DNA from: a virus
Strand: one strand, 5' to 3'
Virus record (IMG/VR): IMGVR_UViG_3300016457_001358
Span: 1 to 63,208 of that record
DNA length: 63,208 bases
Below are positions 1 through 63,208 of the stretch, one piece after another (the stretch's first letter is position 1; the number at the start of each line of letters is the position of its first letter). The translations under genes and the position numbers were made by a program. The notes beneath the pieces are model-generated. The model was not told the origin of the DNA. It worked only from the letters and a program-made list of their open reading frames with translations, and ran no database searches.

Positions 1-936
1 AAGAGGATAACTGTTCCAGACGATTTATTAAGACAGGACTTGGGAGACATAAACTCGCTGGTGGAATCCATAAAACGGTGCGGCCTCGACAACCCCATAA
101 CAATCCAGCAGGTCGGCGACAAGATAATATTGCGGAAGGGAAGGCGCAGGCTGGAGGCGTTCAGGCGCATGCGAAAGTCCAAAATACCATACAAGCTTGA
201 GAGTGAGACCAAGAGCGACGAGAGCAGATTAATAGTCCTTATGAAGCAGGCCGCCGAGAACAGGGCGAGGAAGGACTTCACGCCGGCGGAGGATTTGCGG
301 GCGGTTCTGGAATTGACGAAAGAGGCGGTCGAATACATCGACAATGACAGCGATGCGGGGGCATACATCGTGAACCTGCACATGAAATTGTGGAAAAAGG
401 AAAAACTGTATTCAGACGAAAAGAAACTTGTGGACATCCTCAAAGGGGCTGGATACTCGAATTTCAACTTCCTGTCAAAGCTCATGAGACTGCGAAAGCT
501 CAGTAAAAATATCCTCGAAAGGGTTGAATACGGAAACAGCAACACGATTAACGATATTTTTGAAAAGAAGAAAATCTCCTTCGGCCACGCGATAGAGCTG
601 TCGACCCTGAAAGCCGAGAAGCAGGAGATGATGTTCGAGAGAATATTCAAGGAAAAGATGAAAATCGTGCAATTGAGAAAGGAAATCAAAAAAGAAAAGC
701 ACGGGAATGAAAAGCACAAGGTGTGTGGCGCTCGCGGGTATCGCCCGCGGAGAAGCGGGTTAAAGATATTGGAGGAGCAGATGAAGAAAAAGCAGGAGGC
801 GAAAAAAGAGAAAGACGAGAATGAGGATGCAGAAAAAATCATTTTCAGCGAAGGGACGGTGGTCATCTGCCCGCATTGTCTTGAAACTTTCGAGCTCGAT
901 GCCTTCGAGCAGCACGAGTTAAAGGTGAGGGGATGA
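1..936 (+). CDS. ParB-like partition/nuclease-domain protein with C-terminal zinc ribbon; 5' end lies at 63082 across the circular junction
   Basis: ParB box motifs GLDNPITIQQVGDKIILRKGRRRLEAFRRM; C-terminal CPHC..H; frame continuous with 63082..63208. Confidence 0.65.
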   Translation, partial: KRITVPDDLLRQDLGDINSLVESIKRCGLDNPITIQQVGDKIILRKGRRRLEAFRRMRKSKIPYKLESETKSDESRLIVLMKQAAENRARKDFTPAEDLRAVLELTKEAVEYIDNDSDAGAYIVNLHMKLWKKEKLYSDEKKLVDILKGAGYSNFNFLSKLMRLRKLSKNILERVEYGNSNTINDIFEKKKISFGHAIELSTLKAEKQEMMFERIFKEKMKIVQLRKEIKKEKHGNEKHKVCGARGYRPRRSGLKILEEQMKKKQEAKKEKDENEDAEKIIFSEGTVVICPHCLETFELDAFEQHELKVRG

Positions 937-4157: not shown

Positions 4158-5066
4158 ATGAGCAAAAAAAAGAACAAAAAAATCATAAACATACTCCGGG
4201 ACAATCCCCTGACGCTGGGCGAACTTGCCGCCGAATTGAAACAATCCAAAACACAATGCAAGAGGGATTTGAGAGACCTGAAAATTCTCGGCGTCTATGT
4301 CGCCAGGGAAAGGATAGACAACAAGACGAAGTATTACATCCCGCTCAAGATGCCGACAACAGAGCCAAGAAAGGTGGACACGGACTACTTTGCCCTGATA
4401 GGGGACACCCACCTCGGCAGCAAATACGCGGAGGAGGAGTGCCTCAACGATTTCTTCGACATTTGCGACGAGAGCGGAATCAAGGACGTGTTCCACGCGG
4501 GAGACATCGGGGACGGGGTTATGGTTTACGACGGGCAGATTAACGACCTGCTACCCGAGGCGCTGACGTTGCAGGACCAAATACAGTATATTATAGAGCA
4601 CTACCCGAGAAAGAAGAACATAAAGCAAAAGCTCGTCAGCGGAAACCATGATACCAAACAGTTCAAGAGGCAAGGCGTCGACATAGCGAAATCAGTTGCT
4701 GATAGAAGAAAGGACATCGAGCACATCGGCCAGTCGTACGGAAGGATAAGGCTGAAGGACGATGTTTTATTAGAGATAGCTCACCCGACGGGCACCTGCC
4801 CGTATGCGAAGGACTACCGCTTCAGGACATATCTCCGGGAGAGGCCGATAAACAACTACCCGGACATCCTGGCGTTGGGGCACCTGCACAGCTCGATATT
4901 CACGGACATCCAGGGAACGCAGTCGTACATGGTCGGCTGCTTCCTCGGGGACACGGAGTTCACGAGGAGAAGAGGCCTCAACCCGGCGATAGGCGGGTGG
5001 ATAGTCGATTTGGACATCGAGGACGGGAAAATAAAGAGGAACAGAAGCGAGTGGGTGAAGTATTGA
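4158..5066 (+). CDS. calcineurin-like metallophosphoesterase with N-terminal winged-helix-like segment
   Basis: Phosphoesterase motifs GDTHLG, GDIGDG, GNHD, GHLH. Confidence 0.7.
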   Translation: MSKKKNKKIINILRDNPLTLGELAAELKQSKTQCKRDLRDLKILGVYVARERIDNKTKYYIPLKMPTTEPRKVDTDYFALIGDTHLGSKYAEEECLNDFFDICDESGIKDVFHAGDIGDGVMVYDGQINDLLPEALTLQDQIQYIIEHYPRKKNIKQKLVSGNHDTKQFKRQGVDIAKSVADRRKDIEHIGQSYGRIRLKDDVLLEIAHPTGTCPYAKDYRFRTYLRERPINNYPDILALGHLHSSIFTDIQGTQSYMVGCFLGDTEFTRRRGLNPAIGGWIVDLDIEDGKIKRNRSEWVKY

Positions 5067-8891: not shown

Positions 8892-9059
8892 ATGATGAGA
8901 ATGGAATGTTACATTTGCGGAAAAGAAATTGATGAAGCAGCAGAAGAAGGCATAGATTATTGGAAGTGCTATGACGGAAAGTCTGTAATTTACATGAAGT
9001 GTTTTGAAAAACCAGAGGCGGGTAAAAGCGTGTCGAAAAAATCTGCTATTGGTCTCTAA
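8892..9059 (+). CDS. small zinc-binding protein
   Basis: CYICG...CYDG..C. Confidence 0.3.
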   Translation: MMRMECYICGKEIDEAAEEGIDYWKCYDGKSVIYMKCFEKPEAGKSVSKKSAIGL

Positions 9060-9077
9060 CGAGGCTGAGGTGATGGC

Positions 9078-9248
9078 ATGAAATGCCCATACTGCGGAAA
9101 CAGGCTGAAAACTTTATTTTACTATACGACAAAGCCCAAACACAAAAAGAACAACACAAAATTTGCATACTGCGAAAAATGTGATAAAGTCTTCAGAATA
9201 ATTGTTGCGGATACAGAAACAACTGAGAGGGTGAAAGAAAATGAGTGA
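9078..9248 (+). CDS. zinc-ribbon protein
   Basis: MKCPYCG...CEKC. Confidence 0.35.
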   Translation: MKCPYCGNRLKTLFYYTTKPKHKKNNTKFAYCEKCDKVFRIIVADTETTERVKENE

Positions 9249-27267: not shown

Positions 27268-30200
27268 TCAAATGAGTTTGAGAATCTTTTGATACCGATA
27301 CACGGTGTTTTTTGACAGTCCAGTCGCCAGACTGATGCTTCTTCTGGATTCGTTTTTTGCCGTGAGCTCGATTATCTGCTTCAATATTTTGCCCGTAACC
27401 TTCACGGGCTGACCGGCTTTTTTGATTTTGTCGAAAAGCATGATCCACGTTTGAGGCCCGATGTGCGCGATGTGGAATGAATACTCGCCCGTCATATCGA
27501 TCAGCTTCTTTGGCGGTTTAACCAGCACTGGAGCTCCCTCTTTTTTCGCCATTTGCAAAGGCTTCAGGTTAACATCGCCCTTGTCCGATCTGAACTCTAT
27601 TCTTATTTTGTGATCGGTCACTTCGTGGATGGTGTACACGCCTCTGGAAATTATGATAAAGACCCCGGGATAGCGCGTTTTAGCCGTGCCGATCTTATGC
27701 GTGACCCCGTCGAAGAACAGCCAGTCCACCGGCTCCGTCAGCTTGATCGTTCCTCTGACATGCGAACTGTCGGCATAGTTCGATTCTTCCACCGTTGCGG
27801 GAGTGAACAGCGTTATCCCTTCGAGGCAACCCTTGAGTTTGCCTTTTTTGAACAATGCCAGCGCGTCATCGTAGGTCAAGACTTTGCAAGTTACTTCGTC
27901 GGGAACAAACAACCTGACATCCCGGTGCGTTTTTCGCCCTATGCTGTGCAGGTGGATGACATAAGGCATCCACAGATTGTTGTTCATGATTTTTTTGAAA
28001 TTTCTCTGCATTCTCTCCGGGAAGTCCCTGATTATTTTGACTTCTTTGGCTTCCTCCGGCTCTTTTTTCAACTCTTCGTGCTTCACCGCAACGCCGATCG
28101 CGGTGACTATGTCCTCGAGTTCGTCTATTGTCGAAGTTTCCTTTTTTTCCGTAATATGATTGACCCTTGGCTTGTGAATCGAGTACCACCTGCCTTTGTC
28201 CGATTCGTGCCTCCAAACCTCTTCGACCAAAATGCTCAGTATGGCTCCCTCTTCGTATTTTTCGGATGTGTTGAACGTTTTGCCGAGAACCAGCACCTTT
28301 TTTCCTTTGAAATCGGTTATCTTGTCGGGGTTGATGCCGGCGTCCTTTTCCCTCAGATAGACTCCCACGAGATAGTTGTAAAGATTCTTTTCCTTGGGAA
28401 TTCGGTCCAGTATCACCACATCTATATCGACGAGGTTGCGAAATTTCAGCCACGACTTATGCTCTCCGAAATGATACTTTGCCGACAGGTCTTTGATCAC
28501 GGCCCCTTCCGAGTAAGGCAGATTCTTTGCCCACTCTATCGCCTTTCTGACTTCATCGACCCCTTTCGCAAACTTTCTCTGAATGAGCAAGGTTCTGGGA
28601 CCGAAGTTCAATTTATTCAAATATTTGATGCGCTCGTGTAAGCTCAGGTTCGTGATATCATTATCGAAGTAAACGATGTCCCATATAAATATCTTAATGT
28701 TTTTGTCGTCCACCTTTTTTCCGCTTTCGATCGCTCCTATGAATTTCATCAATGTGTTTCTTCCGAGCTGCTTGCCGTCGTCGAAAGGAACTATCTCGCC
28801 GTCCACTATGAAATTAGCATCGCTCATCTTCGATATCGCATCGCACAGAGTCGGAAACGCAAACGTCAGCTCTTTTTTTTGCTCTGAAAATATCTTCACT
28901 TCGCTTCCCTTTTTGTGGCAGCACACGTGAAATCCGTTTATCTTTTTCTCTACGGAGTATTCGATATCATTCCTGATCTTTGCCATTATGTCATCGATTT
29001 TGTAATAAGCCGAGCCCAGCGGTTTTTGAGGAAGATAAGGCTCGAACAGCCGAACCGAATCTCCGAGAATTATTTCGTTCATTTCCACTATTTTGGTCGG
29101 TTTGATGCGCTCCAGTTTCAAATCGTAAAGCGGAATGAATGAGTCGTGGCTGCCCTCCGCATCTCCCCATATCATGTGAATCTTCGGTATCAACTCGGCG
29201 TAGCCGTTTTCTTCGAGCATTTTCAGCAGCCTGACTTCGATCGCCCTTCTTATATACGAGTTCTTCTCCGCTCGCAATCTGATTTGCAAGTCCACATCGT
29301 TCGGTATGTGACCCTTTGGTCTTTTCACGGTAGAACCGACCAGAGAAATGCAGTCCTTGACTATTTTGAAGTCCTTGAATGCGTCCAGAAAATCGAGATT
29401 CGTCAAATCAACTTTCTTGTGTATCATCTCCTTTTCTCCGGTTATTCGCTTATACAGATCCAATGACCATTTCTTGTAGGTTTCCGGGTGAAACTCAATG
29501 CCCCTTTTCTTGAGCTCCTCGTATATCATTTTGGCGAGATTGACGAGAGTTTCTTCCGAATACGGTGTTTTCTCTCCTCTTTTCAGCTTGCTGTAATGGG
29601 CGCACACCAGTCTGTAATCGTCCTTCAAAACATCCGTGCTCAACTTTTTGGGATCATACGTCTCCGGGTTCTGTATCAAATTCGCTTCGACGTTCTGGAA
29701 CTCAAATTTTTCCAACACGCTTTCGATTTTTTCGGCGAGCGAATCCCACCAGCTTTCCCAACCTTTCTCGCCGTACCACACTTTGCCCGCAACGACCACT
29801 CTTGGTCTGTTCTCGGCGCCGATGTCGCATTTGGAATACAAGCCGTCCTGCTTGTCCAGCTCTTTGCTGATATCTTCGGCTTTGTCATCGTCGGCCGGGT
29901 TCGCCATCCTGAACACTATGAAGGCGACCCTCTCGGGCGACTTTCCCTCGTCGCTCGCCCTTATCTCTATCTCCTTGATCCCGTTCAGTTGCTCGAGCCA
30001 CTCGTCCTTTATATGAACATCGATATCGTTGAAACCGTTCCACGACTTCTTCGGACCGTCCGTGCGGCCGCTCAACCAGCCTCCCGGCGGCAATTTGTTG
30101 TATACCGCGTAGTATGCGAATGTGGGCGAATTCATTTTCGGCGTGTAATCCGCATTCAAAAATTCGATATCCTTCACGAATGTTTGCGTGCCTTTTTTAA

Positions 30201-32106
30201 ACTTCCACCTTCGCGGAGCTGAAAACTTCGTGATCCATTCAAACGAGAATTCGTAAAAATGCTTTTTGTCTTTCCATCCCCATTTTTCAATCTCGCTCTC
30301 GCTGATCAAATGAAGATTCGCCCTCTCGTCGAACTGCTTTTTCGTGATTTTGTTTGGCGCATGAAGCCTGATAACGCCGTAAACAAACTCTTTGTCCACG
30401 ACATAAAGAGCTTTGTCCACCATCTCGGGATAAGGTCTCGTCTTTATTATCAGCGATTTTTTTCCGCCCCATAACCATCTGGCGTGAGGCGACGGCAAAT
30501 AAATTCCCTCTCTCTGCTCGAACAGTTGCAACTCCACCAACTTCTGACTCGCGTCAATTGAATCGGGATCGTAGTTGCTGAATACCAGCTCGTATTCGGG
30601 CTTGTCGTTCTTGGCGAAGGTTCTTTTGTGGAGCATCTTTTTCATGTAAAAATCTTTGAACAAATCCCTTATCCAGTCGGCATCATTCAATGTTAAAAGA
30701 AACTTTCCCTTCACCGATTTCAAAATGTCGCGGAGCTCCCGCAGGTTTTCTTTCGTGAATTTCAAACCGTTTTTTTCGAACTTCCACTCGTCGGGATAAG
30801 GGGGATCGACAAAGAAAAACGTCTGCGAGGAGTCGAACCTCTTTATGATCGATTTGTAGTCCTGGTTGTATATCTTCACGCCCTTCAATCTGTTCCTCAG
30901 CGCGTCCCATCTGTTCAAAATCCCGAGCAACTTTTCTTTGTTGAACCAGCCGTATGTTTCTCTGTCTATTCCGTAAGAGTATCTCGTGAGATACAAAAAT
31001 TTGGCGAATCTCTCGGCATCGTTCTTCGGCTTCAATTCTTTGATCCTGAAAAAAGTCGGTTTGTCGTTTTTCCATGCGTATTGCCTGAGCCTTTGGGCAT
31101 CTTCGGCGCTCGTGCTTTGTATGAATTTGTACGCGAACGCGATCTCTGGATCGAGATCGTTTAAAACCTCGATTTCGCTCGGGCTCTTTCTCCAGAACAC
31201 CGCAGCTCCGCCGGCGAACGGCTCGCAGTAAATTTTGTGCTGTGGCATCATCTTGATCAATTTTTCCGCGACCCTGCTCTTGCCGCCCGGGCTGCCGAAC
31301 GCCTGTTGCATGAGTTCATGATCTTTGTATAGCACCATGCCGTCGTAAGACAAAATGATTTCGCTGCTCGATTTCCCCTTTATCTGGTTCCAGTATCGCC
31401 GAATCTGTTTTTCGGCCTCGTGATGGTCGGGATACGAGCGCCCCGCTTGTATCAGCACGAATTTGTCTGGATTGTATGCTTGAGCGTATGCCAGCGAATT
31501 GGCGACATTCAGATGCCCTCTCAACATCTTGCCCGTGGCAACTATCTCGCCTCCCCTTTCTTCCAAATTGTAAATGGCCGCATCCAGAATCATTATGTCC
31601 GCGTTTTTGAGATAGCGCTCGTTTTCTGCGGGGACCGATTCCATGTCCTCGGCATAAACCAAGCCGTCGATCCTGTACCCGTAGCAGGGAAATTTCTTGC
31701 CGGTCGGAAACGCCTCCGCGTGAATCACCCTGAAAGGAATTATCTTGAATCCCATTATTTCGTTCGTCTGGCGAGGAGTTATCGGTTTGAGAACGATGTT
31801 TTTGAACTTCTTTTGTAGCCTTTCGTTCGCCAGCACATCCGGGGGAGCGTAAACGTTTATGGGCTCGGTCAGCCACTTGTCCAGATCGGGCAGACCGCCA
31901 ATGCAGTCGGCGTGAGCGTGCGTCAGCAGGCAGAAGTCTATTTTCTCGATGCCGTTCTTCTCCGCTTGCTCCCTGAAGTGCTTGGTGACATCGATTATGA
32001 AGGATTTTCCGCCCTTTTCTACATAGATGGAGCTATTGGTGCGCCTGTTTTTTCCTCTTCCTTCAACTAACTGAGTCGGACCCGAGCCCAGCACAACTAT
32101 TTTCAT
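27268..32106 (-). CDS. giant multi-domain (polyvalent-type) virion-module protein: MBL-fold hydrolase + Dam-like N6-adenine MTase + ligase-like nucleotidyltransferase
   Basis: LLTHAHADCIGG; GGKSRVAEKL..YCEPFAGGAAVF..FFFVDPPYPDEW; EKKINGFHV..FIVDGEIV..SWLKFRN; likely start MKIVVLGSG at 32106. Confidence 0.75.
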   Translation of the reverse strand: MKIVVLGSGPTQLVEGRGKNRRTNSSIYVEKGGKSFIIDVTKHFREQAEKNGIEKIDFCLLTHAHADCIGGLPDLDKWLTEPINVYAPPDVLANERLQKKFKNIVLKPITPRQTNEIMGFKIIPFRVIHAEAFPTGKKFPCYGYRIDGLVYAEDMESVPAENERYLKNADIMILDAAIYNLEERGGEIVATGKMLRGHLNVANSLAYAQAYNPDKFVLIQAGRSYPDHHEAEKQIRRYWNQIKGKSSSEIILSYDGMVLYKDHELMQQAFGSPGGKSRVAEKLIKMMPQHKIYCEPFAGGAAVFWRKSPSEIEVLNDLDPEIAFAYKFIQSTSAEDAQRLRQYAWKNDKPTFFRIKELKPKNDAERFAKFLYLTRYSYGIDRETYGWFNKEKLLGILNRWDALRNRLKGVKIYNQDYKSIIKRFDSSQTFFFVDPPYPDEWKFEKNGLKFTKENLRELRDILKSVKGKFLLTLNDADWIRDLFKDFYMKKMLHKRTFAKNDKPEYELVFSNYDPDSIDASQKLVELQLFEQREGIYLPSPHARWLWGGKKSLIIKTRPYPEMVDKALYVVDKEFVYGVIRLHAPNKITKKQFDERANLHLISESEIEKWGWKDKKHFYEFSFEWITKFSAPRRWKFKKGTQTFVKDIEFLNADYTPKMNSPTFAYYAVYNKLPPGGWLSGRTDGPKKSWNGFNDIDVHIKDEWLEQLNGIKEIEIRASDEGKSPERVAFIVFRMANPADDDKAEDISKELDKQDGLYSKCDIGAENRPRVVVAGKVWYGEKGWESWWDSLAEKIESVLEKFEFQNVEANLIQNPETYDPKKLSTDVLKDDYRLVCAHYSKLKRGEKTPYSEETLVNLAKMIYEELKKRGIEFHPETYKKWSLDLYKRITGEKEMIHKKVDLTNLDFLDAFKDFKIVKDCISLVGSTVKRPKGHIPNDVDLQIRLRAEKNSYIRRAIEVRLLKMLEENGYAELIPKIHMIWGDAEGSHDSFIPLYDLKLERIKPTKIVEMNEIILGDSVRLFEPYLPQKPLGSAYYKIDDIMAKIRNDIEYSVEKKINGFHVCCHKKGSEVKIFSEQKKELTFAFPTLCDAISKMSDANFIVDGEIVPFDDGKQLGRNTLMKFIGAIESGKKVDDKNIKIFIWDIVYFDNDITNLSLHERIKYLNKLNFGPRTLLIQRKFAKGVDEVRKAIEWAKNLPYSEGAVIKDLSAKYHFGEHKSWLKFRNLVDIDVVILDRIPKEKNLYNYLVGVYLREKDAGINPDKITDFKGKKVLVLGKTFNTSEKYEEGAILSILVEEVWRHESDKGRWYSIHKPRVNHITEKKETSTIDELEDIVTAIGVAVKHEELKKEPEEAKEVKIIRDFPERMQRNFKKIMNNNLWMPYVIHLHSIGRKTHRDVRLFVPDEVTCKVLTYDDALALFKKGKLKGCLEGITLFTPATVEESNYADSSHVRGTIKLTEPVDWLFFDGVTHKIGTAKTRYPGVFIIISRGVYTIHEVTDHKIRIEFRSDKGDVNLKPLQMAKKEGAPVLVKPPKKLIDMTGEYSFHIAHIGPQTWIMLFDKIKKAGQPVKVTGKILKQIIELTAKNESRRSISLATGLSKNTVYRYQKILKLI

Positions 32107-51052: not shown

Positions 51053-51241
51053 ATGGTTGGAGAATTTTTGAAAGTCAGGTGCAAAGCGTGCAAAAACGAG
51101 CAAATAATCTTTGGGAGAGCCACTTCGGTGGTCAGATGCCTCGTTTGCGGAAACATTCTGGCGGTCCCGACGGGAGGAAAATGCAAAATTATTTCCGCCA
51201 GGCTGAAAAAGGTTATTCCGAACGATGATGATGCTTCTTGA
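51053..51241 (+). CDS. ribosomal protein S27e (eS27) homologue
   Basis: [42 protein letters not shown] matches the eS27 C4 zinc-finger signature. Confidence 0.7.
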
Positions 51242-51265: not shown

Positions 51266-51345
51266 ACAGAATATATATGTTTCATCAAACAATTGGTGTA
51301 TACCATTCTTCTATATATAATGTAGAGAATTTGGCGATATGCTAT
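51266..51345. promoter_or_regulatory. conserved promoter/operator region, copy 2 (upstream of wHTH and P-loop genes)
   Basis: cagaatatatatgtttcatcaaacaattggtgtataccattcttctatatataatgtagagaatttggcgat. Confidence 0.5.
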
Positions 51346-53929: not shown

Positions 53930-53941
53930 TACATGCTGGTA

Positions 53942-54180
53942 TGAGAAACCGAGTCAAATATCCATCTACAAGCGGGAAAGTCCTAGCCTCTCACCTACAT
54001 CACCTTTTCTTGCTTGGCTCGGCTCAAAATGCCCTAAACAGTTCGCCATAGAGTATGCGGGTTCGATTCCCGCTGCAAAGGAATGGTGACCACTATGGCG
54101 AATCGCGGCGATCTCCTGCTTCCTGCCGGACGCGCCAGAGAAGCTCGCCGCGAGGCTGGGGGAGAGAAGTAAAGCCGGTG
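53942..54180. ncRNA. candidate structured non-coding element (X+Y fused copy) with tRNA T-arm-like hairpin
   Basis: GC-rich island; gcggg-ttcgatt-cccgc hairpin; 8-bp stem cgcggcga/tcgccgcg; homologous to 7966..8105 and 8235..8388. Confidence 0.3.
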
Positions 54181-54185
54181 GTTAT

Positions 54186-54464
54186 GTGGCAAAAAGAAAA
54201 AAATTAGAAAAAAAATACAAGGAGCGCGAAGTTCTTGAACGCGAATTAAAGCGATTGGTTATACCTAACAAAAAATTGAAACAAGAAGCAGAAAGCGTAG
54301 GATTGGAATGGAGAAGCGGACAATATGAAGGTGTCGTGGGTACGTTTACAGACAAAGAGTTTTTCATGAAGAAATTTGGAGAACAAGCCATGCTTGCTAC
54401 AGTTTTGAAACTAATCGAGGAATGGAAAAACAAAATAGAAAAAATAGAGAAGCAAACAAAATAA
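54186..54464 (+). CDS. hypothetical protein
   Basis: 92 aa K/E-rich ORF, GTG start. Confidence 0.4.
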   Translation: MAKRKKLEKKYKEREVLERELKRLVIPNKKLKQEAESVGLEWRSGQYEGVVGTFTDKEFFMKKFGEQAMLATVLKLIEEWKNKIEKIEKQTK

Positions 54465-54491
54465 TTAAAAAAAGAAATTATGGACATCAAT

Positions 54492-54563
54492 AGGCGGTTG
54501 GTGAAATCAGGCATCATAATAGGCTCATAACCTATTGTTTCGGTTCAAATCCGAAACCGCCTA
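54492..54563 (+). tRNA. tRNA with anticodon CAU (Met or Ile2)
   Basis: Hand-folded cloverleaf: 7-bp acceptor aggcggt/accgcct, D-loop with GG, anticodon loop cuCAUaa, T-arm ttcgg-ttcaaat-ccgaa; no encoded CCA. Confidence 0.55.
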
Positions 54564-54573
54564 TGGTAATGGA

Positions 54574-54693
54574 ATGGAAGAATACAAAAAGGTTCAATGT
54601 AAAATTTGCGGTGAAATATTACTTAATGAGAGCATATCCGAGCATAGGGTCGCAACAGGACATGAAGAATTTGAAAGCATCTCGGAGAGGTGA
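54574..54693 (+). CDS. C2H2-type zinc-finger mini-protein
   Basis: MEEYKKVQCKICGEILLNESISEHRVATGH (C-x2-C-x12-H-x5-H). Confidence 0.4.
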   Translation: MEEYKKVQCKICGEILLNESISEHRVATGHEEFESISER

Positions 54694-55031: not shown

Positions 55032-55034
55032 CAT

Positions 55035-55185
55035 GCGTGGGTAGTCTAAGGCAGGACGCCCCAAAGCGATGCCGTGAGGGTGGCAGGGGAGTGCGAGCGT
55101 CGTGTTAGTGGGGCGATGCGGGTGAAAATCCCGCCCCGCGCTTGGTGATGAGAAATGACCGCGCTCAACTGGCCGAGGTGAGGAG
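55035..55185. ncRNA. candidate structured RNA in GC-rich island
   Basis: Much higher GC than flanks; hairpin gcggg-tgaaaat-cccgc; no convincing ORF on either strand. Confidence 0.2.
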
Positions 55186-55187
55186 AA

Positions 55188-55478
55188 GTGAGTAAGAGCA
55201 GGACTATAGTTTTCCAAATGACAGGACTTCAATTAGCCGGCATTTGGCTAAAGGCACGGATAGCTGGCATCCAACTCAATGAAGCTATCGTCTGTGAGTT
55301 TGCTGATTTGATTCGAAAAAGAACAAATGCTGAAAGAATAATTCCAAAAATTTCCGGTGTCTCTCAACTCATAGCAGAAACCATTGTTGGGGCGAACTTA
55401 GACGAATATTTCGTAAGCAATCCAGCCAGATATATGCGGATAGATGTGCGACCTCCTCGTCGGAAAAATGAATGGTGA
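55188..55478 (+). CDS. hypothetical protein
   Basis: 96 aa ORF, GTG start. Confidence 0.35.
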   Translation: MSKSRTIVFQMTGLQLAGIWLKARIAGIQLNEAIVCEFADLIRKRTNAERIIPKISGVSQLIAETIVGANLDEYFVSNPARYMRIDVRPPRRKNEW

Positions 55479-63081: not shown

Positions 63082-63208
63082 ATGAAAAAACTGAAACCTT
63101 TCGGCGAAATCGAAATCAAGAGGATAACTGTTCCAGACGATTTATTAAGACAGGACTTGGGAGACATAAACTCGCTGGTGGAATCCATAAAACGGTGCGG
63201 CCTCGACA
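63082..63208 (+). CDS. 5' portion of the ParB-like gene (continues at position 1)
   Basis: ATG at 63082 followed by MKKLKPFGEIEIKRITVPDDLLRQDLGDINSLVESIKRCGLD in frame with 40..936. Confidence 0.6.
   Translation, partial: MKKLKPFGEIEIKRITVPDDLLRQDLGDINSLVESIKRCGLD
63118..63208. repeat. terminal redundancy: identical to 1..91 (circular closure)
   Basis: 91/91 nt identity with the window start. Confidence 0.9.

Follow-up and report, generated by a model that had tools for sequence, protein, structure and literature searches.

A CAU-anticodon tRNA gene in the genome of an uncultured archaeal tailed virus

A structurally complete tRNA gene with a CAU anticodon sits in the genome of an archaeal virus. 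This gene (hereafter tRNA(CAU); 54492–54563, plus strand, anticodon at 54526–54528) is 72 nt long and lies in a stretch of 63,208 nt, positions 1 to 63,208 of IMG/VR record IMGVR_UViG_3300016457_001358 and hereafter the window, which is the complete genome of the virus. Judged by its sequence features, tRNA(CAU) may be a methionine-accepting, initiator-like tRNA, a reading that we favour, tentatively, among several that are weighed below.

An intact tRNA gene with a CAU anticodon

The sequence-only reading had proposed an element-encoded tRNA with a CAU anticodon and had named a call by a tRNA predictor as the check on it; two independent predictors, ARAGORN and Rfam, bear this out. At default thresholds and over the whole window, ARAGORN makes a single call, tRNA-Met(cat) at 54491–54564 on the plus strand, while the Rfam tRNA family RF00005 matches 54492–54563 of the same strand at 55.1 bits (E 3.8e-9, model positions 1–71 of 71) against a gathering score of 29 bits. 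No Rfam family besides RF00005 scores above threshold anywhere in the 63 kb, and a permissive scan of 50–60 kb yields nothing further that is credible; tRNA(CAU) is the only standard tRNA in the window.

The cloverleaf begins with a 7-bp acceptor stem (AGGCGGU/ACCGCCU), opened by an A1:U72 pair (A54492 with U54562) and followed by discriminator A73; a 3′ CCA is not encoded. Between these lie a D stem GUGA/UCAU with the D loop AAUCAGGCA, which includes G18 and G19, an anticodon stem AUAGG/CCUAU with the loop CU-CAU-AA, and a T arm UUCGG-UUCAAAU-CCGAA, with U8 and A26 in place. The stems thus follow the 7/4/5/5-bp plan, and the conserved U8, A14, G18G19, A21, U33, U54U55C56, A58 and C61 are all there, as are all the nucleotides of the tertiary core (U8-A14, A15-U48, G18-U55, G19-C56, U54-A58, G53-C61 and A21). 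The one departure is the variable loop, of 3 nt (UGU) rather than the 4–5 nt of class I tRNAs, which amounts to one deletion relative to RF00005 and still allows the A15:U48 Levitt pair. Every part of the cloverleaf that had earlier been folded by hand, from the stems and loops to U8, A1:U72 and the 3-nt variable loop, recurs in the RF00005 alignment and in the ARAGORN drawing.

Folded on its own, the bare 72 nt adopts the cloverleaf as its minimum free energy structure (−25.5 kcal/mol, z = −4.4), a stability that not one shuffle out of 200 attains. The stems are GC-poor, with G:C in 11 of 21 pairs and 44% GC for the whole gene, and in the model an unmodified transcript loses most of its stability on heating, with −25.5 kcal/mol at 37 °C, −6.8 at 70 °C and −2.1 at 80 °C, a profile that fits a mesophilic to moderately thermophilic host. 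The low GC agrees with the observation that viral tRNAs are generally lower in GC than host tRNAs (PMC13532342).

The virus and the surroundings of the gene

The two ends of the window (1–92 and 63117–63208) overlap by ~91 nt, and another assembly reads the window end into position 93, so that the ~63.1-kb genome is either circular or terminally redundant. The same virus occurs base for base in several SPET22-1 assemblies (SAMN18353074-78) and in JGI 3300017593, and one assembly has a 1-nt indel near 57.9 kb. We take the SPET22-1 label to be that of the Speth 2022 study of Auka/Pescadero hydrothermal sediment, and the samples that hold the virus are probably hydrothermal sediment. The tRNA(CAU) sequence is identical in contigs of at least three other assemblies; over 1.4 kb the public copies of the region agree at 100% of positions, which leaves no differences for a covariation analysis.

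By its gene content the element is an archaeal tailed virus. It encodes a large terminase (TerL), a Mu-type portal and a 1612-aa polyvalent protein, with the tail module on the minus strand. The archaeal context suspected in the sequence-only reading stood up, in the form of an archaeal PCNA (sliding clamp; full-length match to NF002222, E 3e-40), an archaeal-type RNase HII (TIGR00729) and GGTG(A) ribosome-binding sites at −16 to −7 upstream of 53 of the 114 genes. S27e-like and DUF7557 matches among its genes point the same way, the former in a 57-aa ORF at 51068–51241 (plus strand), for which a public gene call carries a precomputed Pfam match to the ribosomal protein S27e zinc-ribbon family. 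The virus has no near isolate: a megablast search against INPHARED returned no match, the best TerL match to any INPHARED virus is 22% identical, and the sole archaeal-virus match of the capsid protein is to an Altiarchaeum virus. Among the uncultured relatives with a TerL 51% identical (L016–L021), those labelled L019–L021 carry an intein with Hint and LAGLIDADG domains in the TerL gene (802 aa vs 506 aa here), and one of these three has a TnpB/Cas12f-like gene.

Several other genes may be mentioned for their own sake. The polyvalent protein (27268–32106, minus strand) follows directly after the portal gene, contains metallo-beta-lactamase or anti-Pycsar Apyc1-like, Dam methyltransferase and ATP-dependent DNA ligase domains, and is conserved in the relatives at 1185–1467 aa. 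At 42132–44562 (plus strand) an amidoligase (phrog_2443), a class-II glutamine amidotransferase and an ATP-grasp (RimK/MptN-like) ligase form a three-gene cluster, which looks like a peptide or metabolite modification module.

Upstream of tRNA(CAU), a TATA-like, A/T-rich box read from the sequence (ATAATTAAAA, 54461–54470, plus strand) lies at −31 to −22 from the 5′ end of the tRNA, where an archaeal TATA box is expected, and overlaps the stop codon of the preceding 92-aa ORF. Boxes resembling TTTATATA also precede other genes or operon starts of the virus, a further archaeal trait, and the box at tRNA(CAU) is a possible archaeal promoter. Elsewhere on the plus strand, a near-identical motif, AATTG(A/G)TGTATACCATTCTTC(C/T)ATATATA, occurs at ~46260–46300 and ~51290–51330; it precedes the PCNA gene (46311) and a gene at 51344, which probably share this TATA-containing promoter. 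Predicted sigma-70 promoters and intrinsic terminators exceed shuffles by 1.6 sd and 2.4 sd, respectively, with no site tied to tRNA(CAU).

Downstream, the ORF listing gives a C2H2 zinc-finger mini-ORF of 39 aa (54574–54693, plus strand; C-x2-C-x11-H-x5-H), which starts exactly 10 nt after A73, just as had been read earlier from the letters, and is annotated as a gene in one public assembly (L010). Family searches with this and the other ORFs adjoining tRNA(CAU) found no match. A T-run is absent after tRNA(CAU), so that the tRNA and the mini-ORF are possibly co-transcribed.

The gene is also flanked by two GC-rich intergenic islands, 53930–54185 (54% GC) and 55032–55217 (59% GC); all other intergenic stretches of at least 80 nt have 21–48% GC. 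The downstream island holds a GC-rich, tRNA-shaped element (55035–55142, plus strand), found by ARAGORN with introns allowed at -ps90 and starting 470 nt downstream of tRNA(CAU). It reads GCGUGGG-UA-GUCU-AAGGCA-GGAC-G-CCCCA, then a 38-nt insert (55064–55101), then GUGUUAG-UGGGG-CGAU-GCGGG-UGAAAAU-CCCGC-CCCGCGC-U; in cloverleaf terms, the acceptor stem has 7 bp, the D arm contains GG, the 5-bp anticodon stem is split by the insert, the ‘anticodon’ is GUU, the T loop (UGAAAAU) is non-standard and the discriminator is U73. With the insert removed, the element is called tRNA-Asn(gtt) by ARAGORN at default settings, an outcome that the same deletion scan gave in none of 60 shuffles and none of 59 other windows of the genome. 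The fold is a cloverleaf whether the insert is kept or taken out, and in the latter case the element has 65.7% GC, far above the 44% of tRNA(CAU). A search of the element for a clean archaeal bulge-helix-bulge splice motif found none. Such motifs around the islands were rejected as evidence because they arise too readily by chance, with 162 on one strand and ~80 in shuffles; this includes a strong-looking one at 53938–54033, which is not significant against background. The upstream island contains a perfect T arm (GCGGG-TTCGATT-CCCGC, 54057–54073) enclosed by a 7-bp helix (54046–52 with 54093–99), and gives only a poor tRNA-like fold (54007–54082, after deletion of 5 nt).

Which codon tRNA(CAU) would read

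A CAU tRNA may belong to one of three classes: initiator tRNA-Met, elongator tRNA-Met, or tRNA-Ile2, which reads AUA after modification of C34 (PMC8450103). By itself the sequence of tRNA(CAU) is compatible with the reading of AUG (as methionine, possibly as a start tRNA) and with that of AUA (as isoleucine). Overall similarity is no guide to the isotype: identities to the E. coli fMet (metZ), Met and Ile2 tRNAs are 0.64, 0.61 and 0.62, values that discriminate nothing, and the body of tRNA(CAU) appears unlike that of any reference tRNA.

Features of an initiator are combined in tRNA(CAU) with features that are not. An A1-U72 pair is present in all archaeal initiator tRNAs, with G-C at this position in most elongators (PMC5393177), and tRNA(CAU) has A1:U72. 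The anticodon arm core GGCUCAUAACC is also that of E. coli tRNAfMet, and 14 of the 17 T-arm positions agree as well; tRNAfMet is itself 83% identical to the archaeal initiator consensus (PMC5393177). The three consecutive G:C pairs at 29-31:39-41 of initiators are ‘almost universally conserved’ (PMC7531240), and here only two of them are found (G30:C40 and G31:C39) because 29:41 is A:U. Archaeal initiators are highly conserved in sequence, and their acceptor stem is identical to that of E. coli tRNAfMet except for the A1-U72 variant (PMC5393177), and AGGCGGU in tRNA(CAU) differs from this conserved AGCGGGG. Finally, U11:A24 is elongator-like.

Similar CAU tRNAs in other viruses bear on the same question. 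A search of IMG/VR with the D arm and anticodon arm found the contig 3300028581_000003 (L034/L112), a 50-kb AT-rich virus that encodes an ATP-dependent DNA ligase, an integrase and a PolB closest to the PolBs of haloarchaeal tailed viruses. Its lone CAU tRNA (9007–9079) is 73% identical to tRNA(CAU) and shares A1:U72, the D-arm type, GGCUCAUAACC, UUCAAAU, the 3-nt variable loop and the lack of an encoded CCA. On the other hand, its acceptor and T stems are imperfect, its genome has the integrase, and no proteins common to the two viruses were detectable. A 1:72 mismatch is the hallmark of bacterial initiators, and the same search found CAU tRNAs with such mismatches in three phage tRNA arrays, each with a further CAU tRNA as its neighbour; this neighbour is elongator-type in L111 and L113, and in L110 it nearly duplicates the first. 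Together these look-alikes are suggestive of a start-type tRNA. Two controls weaken the suggestion: viral tRNA-Leu and tRNA-Gln commonly have the shared D-arm type as well, and weak 1:72 pairs occur in 40 of the 169 non-CAU viral tRNAs fetched (13 A:U, 27 U:A). Both features being common in viral elongators, we downgraded the argument for initiator identity from a shared scaffold.

In sum, A1:U72, A73, GGCUCAUAACC, the T loop UUCAAAU and the look-alikes in L034/L112 and the phage arrays count for an initiator-like tRNA, while A29:U41, the divergent acceptor stem, U11:A24 and the frequency of weak 1:72 pairs in viral elongators count against it. MetRS requires little beyond a CAU anticodon and A73, and these are the only strong synthetase determinants of tRNA(CAU), so that by default the host MetRS would charge it with methionine and it would read AUG. 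We infer the following course of events: the intact gene of this apparently lytic-type virus, with the TATA-like box before it, would probably be transcribed on its own, its transcript would be matured by host RNase P, RNase Z and CCA addition, and the tRNA would then be used to translate the viral genes. Moreover, the weak A1:U72, the pairs G30:C40 and G31:C39 under CUCAUAA, and the UUCAAAU loop are initiator-like, and for this reason tRNA(CAU) could follow the aIF2 route, in which initiator Met-tRNA is bound by aIF2 and kept out of elongation, and give the infected cell more start tRNA.

The same CAU anticodon and A73 would also suit an ordinary elongator tRNA-Met, one that helps to decode internal AUG codons, as would U11:A24 and T54-Psi55-C56, which are standard elongator features, and the missing initiator G:C pair. 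This we consider unlikely: AUG makes up just 20.6 per 1000 codons in the 114 genes and leaves no synonymous choice, so that any benefit is doubtful, and A1:U72 is unusual among archaeal elongators (PMC5393177).

A more serious competitor, possible but in our judgement still improbable, is an analogue of tRNA-Ile2, in which the host TiaS would make agmatidine at C34, IleRS would charge the tRNA, and the reading of AUA would boost decoding of the commonest isoleucine codon of the virus. The frequency of ATA codons, remarked on in the earlier reading, is real: ATA accounts for 646 of the 1430 isoleucine codons (45%), or 36.1 per 1000 codons vs 20.6 for ATG, and on viral codon usage alone the demand for AUA decoding is high. 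AUA is normally decoded by a single dedicated CAU tRNA that needs agmatidine (PMC8450103; PMC3919564). The preference for ATA is uniform across structural and non-structural genes, and ATA supplies 54% of isoleucine codons even in the 55%-GC terminase gene; such uniformity can be counted for the Ile2 reading, but it also looks like host-adapted usage, and therefore no gap in supply is shown. Five phage CAU tRNAs in IMG/VR have the same acceptor stem as tRNA(CAU), and two of them (L030, L032) have a body like that of E. coli ileX, a resemblance that is biased because this stem was the search criterion. Against the analogue, tRNA(CAU) is not known to resemble archaeal isoleucine tRNAs. TiaS is said to recognise the acceptor arm and the anticodon stem (PMC10424219).

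Origin, a possible link to tRNA repair, and relation to known systems

To look beyond viruses, 185,579 species genomes were scanned for CAU tRNAs with the acceptor stem of tRNA(CAU). Of seven matches one is a true tRNA, in a bacterial tRNA array of Acidiphilium, and none is an archaeal CAU tRNA; nothing thus points to recent capture from a cell or to an attachment-site copy. Nor does the exact tRNA(CAU) sequence have a match in IMG/VR, the 17-mer GCGGGTGAAAATCCCGC has 64 matches there of which none shows extended similarity, an RNase HII-anchored scan of IMG/VR found no homologous tRNA, and the flanks examined in the relatives L016–L021 contain no tRNA.

These comparisons bear on whether tRNA(CAU) might be an integration-site copy (attP) or a decaying pseudogene that has no role in translation. 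Archaeal proviruses often integrate into tRNA genes (PMC8651126), and with its GC-poor stems the unmodified transcript would be only marginally stable at 70–80 °C; the samples are probably hydrothermal. Yet the gene has its full length and lacks none of the conserved nucleotides, its acceptor stem is found in no archaeal tRNA(CAU) of the genomes scanned, and no integrase family match is on record for any called gene. The joint signature of an attachment site, an integrase together with identity to a host tRNA gene, is thus not seen, and we regard this origin as very improbable.

The virus also carries an enzyme of the tRNA-repair type: an RNA ligase of the T4 RnlA (Rnl1) family is encoded at 39700–40746 (plus strand; PF09511, E 1.6e-23; TIGR02308, E 7.6e-38; T4 RNA ligase 1 in the PDB, E 1e-22), and a calcineurin-type metallophosphoesterase at 4158–5066 (plus strand). 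In phage T4, Rnl1 repairs tRNA that has been cut by an anticodon nuclease. In bacteria, PIN/VapC toxins cut initiator tRNA, and single phage tRNAs are known that neutralise tRNA-cutting defences. tRNA(CAU) could serve counter-defence if an anticodon nuclease of the host cuts a host CAU tRNA during infection: it would replace that tRNA or act as its decoy, with the Rnl1-type ligase repairing in parallel. The presence of the ligase and the metallophosphoesterase in the same genome fits such a role, as does a tRNA body unlike any cellular tRNA found, and the anti-Pycsar-like domain of the polyvalent protein indicates investment in counter-defence. However, the host is not known to have such a nuclease target, CUCAUAA is the usual anticodon loop and shows no obvious change that would confer resistance, and the ligase gene lies 14 kb from tRNA(CAU); all in all we think a counter-defence role distinctly improbable. 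A related speculation, to which we give hardly more credence, merges this role with that of a start tRNA: a hybrid start-type tRNA, with A1:U72 and two of the three G:C pairs, might keep initiation going when the host initiator or methionine tRNA is cut or withheld as a defence, together with the Rnl1-type repair ligase, and the tRNA-shaped element with the 38-nt insert could belong to the same toolkit.

Taken by itself, the presence of a tRNA gene is no surprise, since bacteriophages and haloarchaeal tailed viruses are both well known to encode tRNAs: the virus is unusual, but tRNA(CAU) is a feature of an ordinary kind. What it adds is a record from archaeal tailed viruses of an uncultured lineage that is not halophilic and probably comes from hydrothermal sediment; the virome papers examined on ANME-1 and Thermococcales viruses from comparable sites make no mention of a tRNA. 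The joining of the initiator hallmark A1:U72 with non-initiator features makes tRNA(CAU) a small case for asking how much of the initiator signature archaeal translation needs. It likewise raises the question whether archaeal viruses, as some phages do, use spare tRNAs against tRNA-cutting defences.

Among known systems, archaeal initiator tRNA(Met) shares with tRNA(CAU) the A1:U72 pair, A73, CUCAUAA over G31:C39 and G30:C40, and the T loop UUCAAAU, and differs in that tRNA(CAU) has A29:U41, AGGCGGU in place of AGCGGGG, a 3-nt variable loop and ~31 differences from the E. coli tRNAfMet that served as proxy. The phage T4 tRNA-Ile with a CAU anticodon reads AUA with lysidine, and here, as in T4, a lone virus-borne CAU tRNA accompanies an ATA-rich genome; the AUA reading of the T4 tRNA and of cellular tRNA-Ile2 needs a host-specific modification of C34 (in archaea, agmatidine made by TiaS). 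Both tRNA genes and RNA ligases are already known in archaeal tailed viruses, of which tRNA(CAU) and its virus are a further example: HGTV-1 and several members of the Hafunaviridae and Druskaviridae are archaeal Caudoviricetes that carry both (PMC8651126; PMC13532342), with 34–36 tRNAs in HGTV-1. Those, however, are haloarchaeal viruses with Rnl2 or RtcB ligases, the only families listed in a survey of archaeal viruses (PMC8651126), whereas the virus described here represents a sediment lineage that pairs one tRNA with an Rnl1-type ligase.
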